A DNA stretch of 64,000 bases from Naegleria gruberi (Eukaryota), in NCBI GenBank assembly GCA_000004985.1, contig GG738848.1; one strand, given 5' to 3'. Position 1 is the stretch's first letter. Every line of letters starts with the position of its first letter. Under the pieces are notes generated by a model. That model searched no databases, was not told where the DNA came from, and worked only from the letters and a program-made list of their open reading frames with translations. This document shows positions 5,401 to 6,571 of this stretch, one piece after another. The position numbers and the translations under genes were made by a program.

Positions 5401-6571
5401 AAAGGAAAGTTTGTTTCTTTTCCTTTTCAATTCTTTCCTGTTCAAGTCTTTCGTTTTCAATTCTTTCTTGTTCGAATCTTATTTGATCAGCACGTTCCTT
5501 TTCAAGTCTCTTCTTTTCCAACATTTCTTTTGTAATTCTTTCCTTTTCAATTCTTTCCTTTTCGAGTTTGTCGACTTCTTGTTTAATTATGGAAATTGAT
5601 TTTCCATTAATTTTTAAATTGTTATCAACAACGATATTTGGGGAAGCAAGTAGCAATTTGACAATTTCTAAATTTCCTTTTTGGCAAGCAATAAACAAAG
5701 GAGTGAACTATATATGGTAATATAACTAAATTAATAAATTAAATTTACTTACATTCTAATAAAAATTAGTAAAAAATTTAAATAATAATTGATTGCTTAC
5801 ATTCTATAATGATACATTGAGTATTGAAATATTTCAAATAAATTTTTACTTACATACTAAAATTAATTAATTAAAAAAAATTAATAAAAAATTTTTACTT
5901 ACTCGCTATTTAAATTTTAAATAAAATTAAAAAATAATTAAATACTCACATCCTAATAAACAATATTAAAAAATCAATTAAATTTTACTTACAAACTAAA
6001 TAATATTAACATGTAAATAATAAAATATTATTACTTACAAACTATTATTTTAAAAATTATAAATTTTAAAAATTAAAGCACTTACTCTCTAATAATTATT
6101 TAATACATTTAAAATTAAGTATATTAAGTAATACCTACTTCCTATATAAATATTAAATAAAAAATCGACCATGTAAAATACTTACATACTAAAAATGGAA
6201 TTAAATAAAAAAATAAAATTTTTAACTTACAGTCTATTAAAAATTAAATAAACATTTAAATATAAAACACTCACACCCTACCATCATTAATATATCCAAT
6301 ACATTCACTTCATAACTACTTACACACTAAAAATGTCAACTGTCAACACAATAAATCAAATACTCACACCCTTGTTCACATTAATTTCTGCATAATTCAA
6401 CAATAATTTAACAATTTCCACGCGTCCATTTTCACAAGCATTATACAACATTGTCTTTCCTATTTTTCCATTAGAATATTCATTGATATCTGCTTTTTTA
6501 AACCATTGTTTAAATTCCTTGACATTTCCTGTGGAGGCAGCATCAAGTGCGTTCTCAAAGTTTTTGGACAT
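2450..6571 (-). CDS. Ankyrin-repeat / coiled-coil / protein-kinase-like / tankyrase-like PARP catalytic domain protein. Exons 6571..6368 and 5707..2450, about 1153 aa.
   Basis: Exon 1 reads MSKNF...VEIVKLLLNYAEINVNKG. Exon 2 reads FTPLFIACQKGNLEIVKLLL..., and the junction completes a 33-aa ankyrin repeat. The kinase region has HCDIKPEN, DFD and SPE motifs but a degenerate glycine loop. The C-terminus is [38 protein letters not shown]...YRELIVYD...YPEYIIKYK, a PARP fold closest to tankyrase with the catalytic Glu retained. Confidence 0.75.
5708..6367 (-). repeat. Intronic tandem array of 13 units, each about 47 nt (43–54). On the minus strand every unit is AT-rich spacer, then TAG, three nucleotides, then GTAAGT or GTGAGT. 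This is a chain of mini-introns separated by 3-nt microexon-like triplets.
   Basis: Read directly on the plus strand as ACTTAC/ACTCAC + NNN + CTA at 5747, 5798, 5847, 5896, 5944, 5988, 6033, 6081, 6135, 6180, 6227, 6270 and 6319. The true exon-1 donor at 6363 has the same form. All 13 have exactly 3 nt between AG and GT. Confidence 0.8.

Follow-up and report, generated by a model that had tools for sequence, protein, structure and literature searches.

A chain of putative mini-introns separated by single codons in an ankyrin, kinase and PARP gene of Naegleria gruberi

At the ratchet points of Drosophila an AG directly abuts a GT, the exon between them has zero length and nothing is left in the mRNA, and the introns concerned are tens of kilobases long (PMC8605326). 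Single exons of 3 nt are documented in cytohesin-1 (PMC6314551), in MAP4K5 (PMC8632122) and among plant microexons (PMC8831610), and the micro-exon genes (MEGs) of Schistosoma have exons of 3–81 bp, introns of up to 5 kb, secreted products and coding sequences that are mostly microexonic (PMC10526429). There is also a literature on near intron pairs (PMC2891723), and introners, or introner-like elements, are near-identical spliceosomal introns dispersed genome-wide in hundreds of copies (PMC4540971, PMC3609843). Here we describe a locus in a 64,000-nt stretch of Naegleria gruberi DNA (GenBank assembly GCA_000004985.1, contig GG738848.1; the whole stretch is referred to as the window), where a 660-nt gap between two exons of a gene with ankyrin, coiled-coil, protein kinase and PARP catalytic domains consists of 14 mini-intron-like units separated by 13 triplets. 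In the full-text literature we found no account of single-codon exons arranged in runs, or of mini-introns in tandem, for Naegleria or any other organism, although this was a search of one library and novelty is not thereby proven.

The gap is on the minus strand (Table 1), and splitting it by script gives 14 units, which all begin with GTRRGY and end in TAG, and the 13 triplets that separate them. The motif TAG-NNN-GT[AG][AG]G[TC] is present 13 times, with exactly 3 nt between neighbouring units in every case. Successive junctions are 49, 44, 45, 47, 53, 47, 46, 43, 47, 49, 53 and 48 nt apart; an earlier note on this DNA, made from the letters alone, had given 43–54 nt, which is correct at the lower end and one nucleotide too high at the upper. 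The internal donors are GTAAGT (nine), GTGAGT (two), GTAGGT (one) and GTAAGC (one). Concatenated, the triplets form a 39-nt sequence (TGTGGTACTTATGAAAGATTTTTTGATCGATATAATAAT) that translates to the 13 residues CGTYERFFDRYNN, and none of the 13 is a stop codon. The number of copies in the 660 nt, the counts of donor types, the peptide and the lack of stop codons are all as the earlier note had them. It had also described the triplets as all different, which does not hold; ten are distinct, and TTT, TAT and AAT are each present twice.

The locus resembles each of the systems above in part. With the Drosophila ratchet points it has in common internal composites of acceptor and donor, a strong GTAAGT-type donor beside the AG and, on the reading that we favour below, stepwise removal. 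It differs from them in that 3 nt separate AG and GT at 13 of 13 positions, none of the triplets has GT as its first two letters, and each step spans 43–53 nt and would leave a codon behind. We rejected recursive splice sites as a class for these elements, as AG and GT do not abut at any of the 13 and the gap is only 660 nt rather than a very long intron. The 3-nt microexons of animals and plants are similarly in frame, add one residue, and show that a spliceosome can cope with a 3-nt exon, but they are isolated and have long flanking introns, the animal ones are often under dedicated factors, and they are not reported to form runs of 13 between introns of minimal length. In Schistosoma MEGs there are runs of symmetrical microexons, any subset of which is in frame, that were probably born by exon-intron duplication; in the N. 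gruberi gene 39 of ~3,500 coding nt are in triplets, every such exon is 3 nt, the introns are 40–50 nt, and the product is an ankyrin, kinase and PARP protein of intracellular type. Assignment as a Schistosoma-type micro-exon gene was rejected on the same three points: the small microexonic share, the short introns and the domain content.

The outer boundaries of the gap are sound. Exon 2 encodes a second ankyrin repeat and the coiled coil, and matches a protein kinase domain with 114 bits and a PARP catalytic domain with 78 bits; the whole product is ~1,154–1,167 residues (window 2450–6571, minus strand). The best BLAST alignment is to an N. gruberi paralogue with ankyrin, coiled-coil and kinase regions (P0066), with 62% identity over 38% of the exon-2 product. 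The alignment with the P0066 N-terminus covers exon 1 and runs on into the beginning of exon 2, with the domain order shared; exon 1 therefore belongs to the gene. A shorter paralogue (P0005) aligns as well. The direct junction of the two exons matches Pfam Ank_2 with 64.8 bits, and the earlier note was right to regard the intron ends as secure.

The array pattern is not explained by chance. A first-order Markov model of the gap gives a mean of 0.027 TAG-NNN-GTRRGY motifs and a maximum of two in 20,000 simulations, compared with 13 observed. All 14 of the GTRRGY motifs in the gap are at unit starts, leaving no spare donors, and 14 of its 17 TAGs are at unit ends. Outside the gap there are four TAG-NNN-GTRRGY matches on both strands of the rest of the 64-kb window, three of them in or beside tRNA genes and one without a mini-intron on either side, and nowhere else in the window is there a microexon of 1–15 nt between two AT-rich mini-introns. 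No known RNA family is represented in the gap; the sole sub-threshold match is to snoR77Y (26 bits, with a gathering threshold of 52), which lies in exon 2 on the opposite strand.

The units also have the donor and acceptor signals and the dimensions of introns. GTRRGY is extended by an A at +7 in 11 of the 14 units and every unit ends in TAG. By position, information resides in the donor (G1 T2 R3 A4 G5 T6 and the less constant A7) and the acceptor (T-3 A-2 G-1), with other positions near background. A branch-like motif (YTRAY, 8–26 nt from the 3′ end) is present in 12 of 14 units compared with 6.25 in shuffled bodies (P=0.0005), mostly as TTAAT and once as TACTAAT, with the caveat that YTRAY is a presumed rather than an established branch consensus for N. 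gruberi and that TTAAT forms easily in AT-rich DNA. Introns elsewhere in the window whose removal restores conserved motifs are 64, 42, 43 and 50 nt long. The first two restore CGACWAF/SA and YRDLTG/YKSGVY (the slash marks the junction), which we take to be cysteine protease motifs; the 43-nt intron restores LGTDYIDLYIIH, presumably an aldo-keto reductase motif, and the 50-nt intron V/KGEGMP, which we assume to be that of a DnaJ-like protein. Others that are supported by open reading frames (ORFs) are 50, 54, 58 and 95 nt. The 40–50-nt units are within the length range of these introns, in keeping with the earlier note, which had equated the spacing of the copies with normal intron size. Each of the 13 3-nt pieces has TAG before it, GTRRGY after it and a length that keeps the frame, and the GC content of the triplets, at 23%, is between that of the unit bodies (9.5%; P=0.0096) and that of the exons (29%). 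If any one unit is retained, a stop codon follows by residue 72–111 of 1167.

The preservation of these signals is at odds with the state of the sequence around them. The unit bodies, of which 5.9% is G, are essentially saturated in divergence: mean pairwise identity is 0.661 versus 0.638 ± 0.008 for shuffles, body alignment scores are ~3 standard deviations above the shuffled null, and adjacent bodies are not significantly closer to each other than distant ones (adjacent score 4.8; null 4.1 ± 0.9). Residual matches are short, with the first 14 nt common to units 11 and 12, and 21 nt common to units 5 and 10 at 90%. Even so, not one of the 14 donors or 14 acceptors has been lost, and 42 of 42 signal Gs are intact against the 5.9% G background. 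From this contrast between saturated bodies and preserved signals it follows that the internal sites are under selection and presumably in use; unused neutral motifs would be expected to decay as the bodies have done, and the sites are therefore very likely to be used often enough for their loss to do harm. The earlier note had argued for constraint rather than recent duplication, and the body identities, the intact donors and acceptors and the YTRAY enrichment all bear this out. Tandem Repeats Finder reports two weak partial arrays only (75–79% matches, 2.1–2.3 copies, period 39–46 nt). A minisatellite or other tandem repeat was ruled out as a description of the gap, as body similarity is close to the shuffle level and the periodicity is in the signals and not in the sequence.

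The reading that we favour, with rather more confidence than doubt, is that the gap is a chain of 14 working mini-introns whose 13 single-codon exons are kept in the mRNA. In an organism with short introns, where sites are paired across the intron, each donor would be matched to the closest branch site and AG on its 3′ side, and the units would be removed one at a time, with each step leaving its own triplet behind. The main mRNA would then carry most or all of the 39 nt, and up to 13 residues would be added to the hairpin loop between two ankyrin repeats. We infer from the features of the DNA that the sites are used and the triplets included, and likewise how the array originated and that it maintains itself (see below). 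It is well established for short introns that recognition operates over the intron and that the acceptor is the first AG beyond the branch point; nearest-site pairing with triplet inclusion is therefore the expected default. Moreover, AG and GT are 3 nt apart and GT does not open any of the triplets, so that splicing to an internal acceptor keeps a triplet in the mRNA. A clean junction of 6368 to 5707 could be formed only by a single long-range splice or by a nested, inside-out order of removal, with the remaining 125 nt skipped once the inner units are gone. The earlier note had offered stepwise recursive removal ending in just such a clean junction, which does not fit this geometry; of its three readings, that of 3-nt microexons is the best supported. 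Its observation that direct splicing exactly completes an ankyrin repeat is sound insofar as the Pfam match is good, but it is no argument against triplet inclusion, and the direct product is 2–4 residues short of both paralogues at this loop. The loop at the site of the array is longer than in the direct-splice product by four residues in P0066 (VNLT-DYRD-YSPL) and by two in P0005. The P0066 loop TDYRDY is rich in D, Y and R, and five of its six residues are shared in order with the triplet peptide, a comparison that was chosen post hoc and has a P of ~0.01–0.06.

The possible forms of the mRNA spanning the array differ in sequence. A direct junction would join GTGAACAAGGGT of exon 1 to TTCACTCCTTTG of exon 2, and a triplet-bearing form would contain GGTTGTGGTACTTATGAAAG; k-mers diagnostic for the two are GTGAACAAGGGTTTCACTCCTTTG for the direct junction and AACAAGGGTTGTGGTACTTATGAAAGATTTTTTGATCGATATAATAATTTCACTCC for inclusion of all triplets. 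The tryptic peptides expected from full inclusion are GCGTYER, FFDR and YNNFTPLFIACQK.

If the array is used in this way, it is expected to maintain itself. Loss of a donor or retention of a unit would result in a premature stop, and loss of an acceptor would lead to splicing to the next AG, inside the following GTAAGT, and hence to a frame shift. The array probably arose as copies of an intron were placed nearby, one codon apart, within a loop tolerant of extra residues, and was then frozen while the intron bodies diverged. Were the units spliced singly, this would be the longest known run of minimal exons, and a natural test of the minimal exon size, of how strictly nearest sites are paired by a short-intron spliceosome, and of intron proximity, where the field's assumption is that introns less than ~32 nt apart do not coexist.

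Several points weigh against single-unit splicing with triplet inclusion. The Pfam Ank_2 match falls slightly from its direct-junction score, to 59.3 bits, with the 13-residue insertion, and the full insert would make an ankyrin repeat of 43 residues. The triplet peptide has no clear homologue, and the finding of no stops among 13 triplets is not significant (we estimate ~0.3). To our knowledge, it has never been shown that U1 and the factors at the 3′ splice site can operate no more than 3 nt apart at 13 successive exons. Finally, the annotated mean intron of N. gruberi is 203 nt (PMC8296547) and there is a 95-nt intron in the window, so length alone is no argument against removal of the gap in one step.

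The strongest competitor, which we consider unlikely though by no means negligible, is that the sites are used combinatorially or facultatively, with any donor i joined to any acceptor j ≥ i, to give a family of mRNAs with 0–13 extra residues in the ankyrin loop. A substantial share of these would be the direct 6368-to-5707 junction, possibly formed inside-out as the outer distance shrinks to ~125 nt. Selection on the internal signals is accounted for equally well in this case, every pairing keeps the frame because only 3-nt pieces remain, and the direct product matches ankyrin well. The paralogue loops, moreover, exceed the direct product by 2–4 residues and not by 13, suggesting that the protein requires a loop of intermediate length, and Schistosoma micro-exon genes use runs of symmetrical microexons in this manner (PMC10526429). 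Combinatorial use does, however, demand that distant sites win over perfect ones only 40–50 nt away. This is contrary to the general rules for short introns, and no regulatory elements that might bring it about are evident.

The remaining two explanations are poorly compatible with the preserved signals. One, which we regard as improbable, is that 6367–5708 is a single 660-nt intron removed in one step, the internal motifs being unused relics of an old minisatellite that included a 5′ splice-site region. The ankyrin repeat restored by the direct junction, the weak 39–46-nt periodicity in part of the gap, the short residual matches between units and the existence of long introns in N. gruberi (as reflected in the annotated mean of PMC8296547) all agree with this. 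Neutral signals should however have decayed like the bodies, and what is seen is 14 of 14 donors and 14 of 14 acceptors, an enriched branch-like motif, and survival of all 42 signal Gs where G is scarce. The spliceosome would in addition have to ignore thirteen complete introns of the correct size; if it does, nearest-site rules are contradicted and a new explanation is needed. The other, a dead or mis-joined 5′ end in which exon 1 and the array are decaying and the working start is inside the long ORF, or the locus is a pseudogene, is very improbable: there is indeed no public protein model although six neighbours on the same scaffold have them, but this is explained more simply by failure of gene finders on 3-nt exons, the ORF of 1085 codons is uninterrupted and neither its kinase nor its PARP domain is truncated, exon 1 has an open frame from its ATG and is homologous to the P0066 N-terminus with the domain order shared, and 28 splice signals would not outlast decay.

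The missing protein model has a wider bearing. Queries with the spliced N-terminus and with the exon-2 product found no product of this gene in a collection of 5.8 billion proteins, the only matches being to P0066, P0005 or generic ankyrin proteins. In contrast, six intronless neighbouring ORFs on the same scaffold are letter-identical to annotated proteins of N. gruberi NEG-M. The gene thus seems to have been missed in the NEG-M annotation, probably because gene finders are unable to model 3-nt exons, and this inability is of practical consequence for annotation. We note that a close strain is represented in metagenome run ERR1078381 (assembly ERZ929261), where genomic contigs match window 14999–16288 with 99.07% identity. 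No contig covering the array gene surfaced in this run and assembly, and the ORF next to the gene is absent from the protein collection.

Similar arrays were sought among metagenome contigs (mostly JGI, with some from ENA and GenBank) with the pattern GTAAGT-N28-45-TAG-NNN-GTRAGT-N28-45-TAG-NNN-GTRAGT, which gave at least 120 loci. Of the matches listed, 118 are plain repeats, for example (TAAG)n-like arrays or minisatellites of constant unit, and there are two exceptions (L003 and L077; Table 1), both on environmental eukaryotic contigs. As a control, the same pattern matched 57 loci in 596 Gb of prokaryotic genomes, where every chain of four or more has the same or nearly the same triplet throughout. 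A viral collection gave two loci, one of which is a constant-unit repeat by chain analysis.

The first exception (L003) is in an ankyrin gene, where five related short introns (35–44 nt, bodies 62–79% identical) lie between two of the repeat exons and are separated by the triplets AAA, TGG, AAT and AGT (K, W, N, S). Including the four triplets, the repeat comes to 99 nt and thus to the 33 codons that are canonical for ankyrin. The Pfam Ank_5 score is 94.8 bits with the triplets versus 75.8 bits without, and in the Ank_2 match 90 residues are aligned, gap-free, with 89 profile positions. By these measures the L003 triplets look like coding sequence, which, like the GC content of the N. gruberi triplets and the longer paralogue loops, is an indirect hint that the triplets are kept in N. 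gruberi. The spliced product has no counterpart from any genome or transcriptome in the 5.8-billion-protein collection. The second exception (L077) has its introns separated by the triplets GAA, TTG, TCA, TAT and CGT, which are unrelated to each other; the series is directly followed by TGA. Since duplication of an intron together with a codon would copy the codon too, L077 suggests either that introns alone are copied, at one-codon steps, or that homogenisation is confined to the bodies. The array is in an ankyrin hairpin loop in two instances (N. gruberi and L003) and in a C-terminal tail in L077; all three positions tolerate extra residues cheaply, in agreement with growth in which one codon at a time is added or isolated.

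How such arrays arise can be considered in the light of two known processes. In the model of Rogers, tandem duplication of a segment containing splice signals is said to create a new intron beside the old one. This is a candidate origin for the N. gruberi array, with which the adjacent pairs TTT TTT and AAT AAT and the identity of triplet 2 (GGT) to the last codon of exon 1 are in agreement; TTT is also one step from TTC, the first codon of exon 2. The two pairs have P=0.067 and the mean Hamming distance between adjacent triplets P=0.35, such that there is a weak indication of old unit duplications followed by divergence. The situation differs from that model in that 14 introns coexist at 3-nt spacing, and in L077 the bodies are 91–98% identical and yet the triplets are unrelated. 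The earlier note had proposed, as one reading, growth of an intron by repeated duplication of its own 5′ splice-site region, which is reasonable as an account of origin, but the indications for it are weak. In the case of introners, the five near-identical copies in L077 resemble multiplication of one intron. Introners are usually about a hundred bases or more, and the copying here, unlike theirs, appears strictly local: the array units have no full-length match elsewhere in the 64-kb window, only low-complexity matches of 11–24 nt.

A bolder proposal, prompted by hints in L077 and L003 and in our view quite unlikely, is that a local process plants a copy of an intron exactly one codon from an existing one, and that the 13-codon array in N. 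gruberi is read combinatorially to give graded lengths of a loop on an ankyrin binding surface. If local one-codon copying does occur, it would generate arrays of single-codon exons in short-intron protists. The near-identical bodies of L077, the diverged ones of L003 and the saturated ones of N. gruberi look like a rough age series, which would give a rare view of local intron birth and subsequent freezing by the cost of mis-splicing.

Table 1. Exons, mini-intron units and triplets of the N. gruberi array gene (positions in the window), and the two analogous environmental loci (positions in their contigs)
Feature	Position	Strand	Description
Exon 1	6571-6368	minus	68 codons, ATG start, MSKNFENALD...EINVNKG, ends AAC AAG GGT before GTGAGT; Pfam ankyrin match; P0066 N-terminus alignment
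Gap between exon 1 and exon 2	6367-5708	minus	660 nt
Mini-intron 1	6327-6367	minus	41 nt, GTGAGT...TTGAC...TTTTTAG; YTRAY 9 and 16 nt from 3′ end
Triplet 1	6324-6326	minus	TGT (Cys)
Mini-intron 2	6278-6323	minus	46 nt, GTAAGT...TAG
Triplet 2	6275-6277	minus	GGT (Gly), same as final exon 1 codon
Mini-intron 3	6234-6274	minus	41 nt, GTGAGT...TAG
Triplet 3	6231-6233	minus	ACT (Thr)
Mini-intron 4	6189-6230	minus	42 nt, divisible by 3 but with in-frame TAA
Triplet 4	6186-6188	minus	TAT (Tyr)
Mini-intron 5	6142-6185	minus	44 nt
Triplet 5	6139-6141	minus	GAA (Glu)
Mini-intron 6	6089-6138	minus	50 nt, GTAGGT donor
Triplet 6	6086-6088	minus	AGA (Arg)
Mini-intron 7	6042-6085	minus	44 nt, without YTRAY at 8-26 nt from 3′ end
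Triplet 7	6039-6041	minus	TTT (Phe)
Mini-intron 8	5996-6038	minus	43 nt
Triplet 8	5993-5995	minus	TTT (Phe)
Mini-intron 9	5953-5992	minus	40 nt, shortest unit
Triplet 9	5950-5952	minus	GAT (Asp)
Mini-intron 10	5906-5949	minus	44 nt, GTGAGT donor
Triplet 10	5903-5905	minus	CGA (Arg)
Mini-intron 11	5857-5902	minus	46 nt
Triplet 11	5854-5856	minus	TAT (Tyr)
Mini-intron 12	5804-5853	minus	50 nt, without YTRAY at 8-26 nt from 3′ end; has ACTCAAT
Triplet 12	5801-5803	minus	AAT (Asn)
Mini-intron 13	5756-5800	minus	45 nt, GTAAGC donor, TACTAAT 10 nt from 3′ end
Triplet 13	5753-5755	minus	AAT (Asn)
Mini-intron 14	5708-5752	minus	45 nt, TATATAG end directly before exon 2
Exon 2	5707-2450	minus	Starts TTC ACT CCT (FTP...), 1085 codons and stop, open throughout; second ankyrin repeat, coiled coil, protein kinase, PARP catalytic domain
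L003	Ga0207864_1037532, 1025-1403		Environmental eukaryotic contig, 17% GC; ankyrin gene, 87-nt repeat exons
L077	JACKZZ010005374.1, ~2060-1720	minus	Environmental eukaryotic contig, 25% GC; five 53-54-nt introns, 91-98% identical

The DNA of the window is 32–36% GC and contains many genes, with introns that are few and short. Within exon 2 of the array gene there is a 15-nt periodicity (5419–5563, minus strand; 9.7 copies, 66% matches), which corresponds to an ERIEKERLE-type coiled-coil repeat just 3′ of the ankyrin repeats. Counting the array gene there are at least two PARP-domain genes in the 64 kb, and a pair of divergently transcribed paralogous genes is present at 48888–50057 (minus) and 50144–51310 (plus), the first of which is named poly(ADP-ribose) polymerase in UniRef. 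An ORF at 32493–33371 (plus), whose product contains an RNase H domain (37 bits), is probably a retroelement remnant; the gene on the opposite strand is overlapped by it at the 5′ end of that gene. Eleven tRNA genes are scattered through the window, and there are two instances of inverted repetition that include genes of this type. One is a 120-nt inverted repeat (16220–16339 and 19500–19619; 96.7% identity) with a tRNA-Met(CAT) gene in each copy. The second is an inverted segmental duplication of ~2 kb (19937–21946 and 51482–53605; 95.6–96.5% identity), the copies of which are 30 kb apart and contain a GST-like gene (20333–21052 and 52475–53194) together with a pair of tRNA-Pro and tRNA-Met genes.

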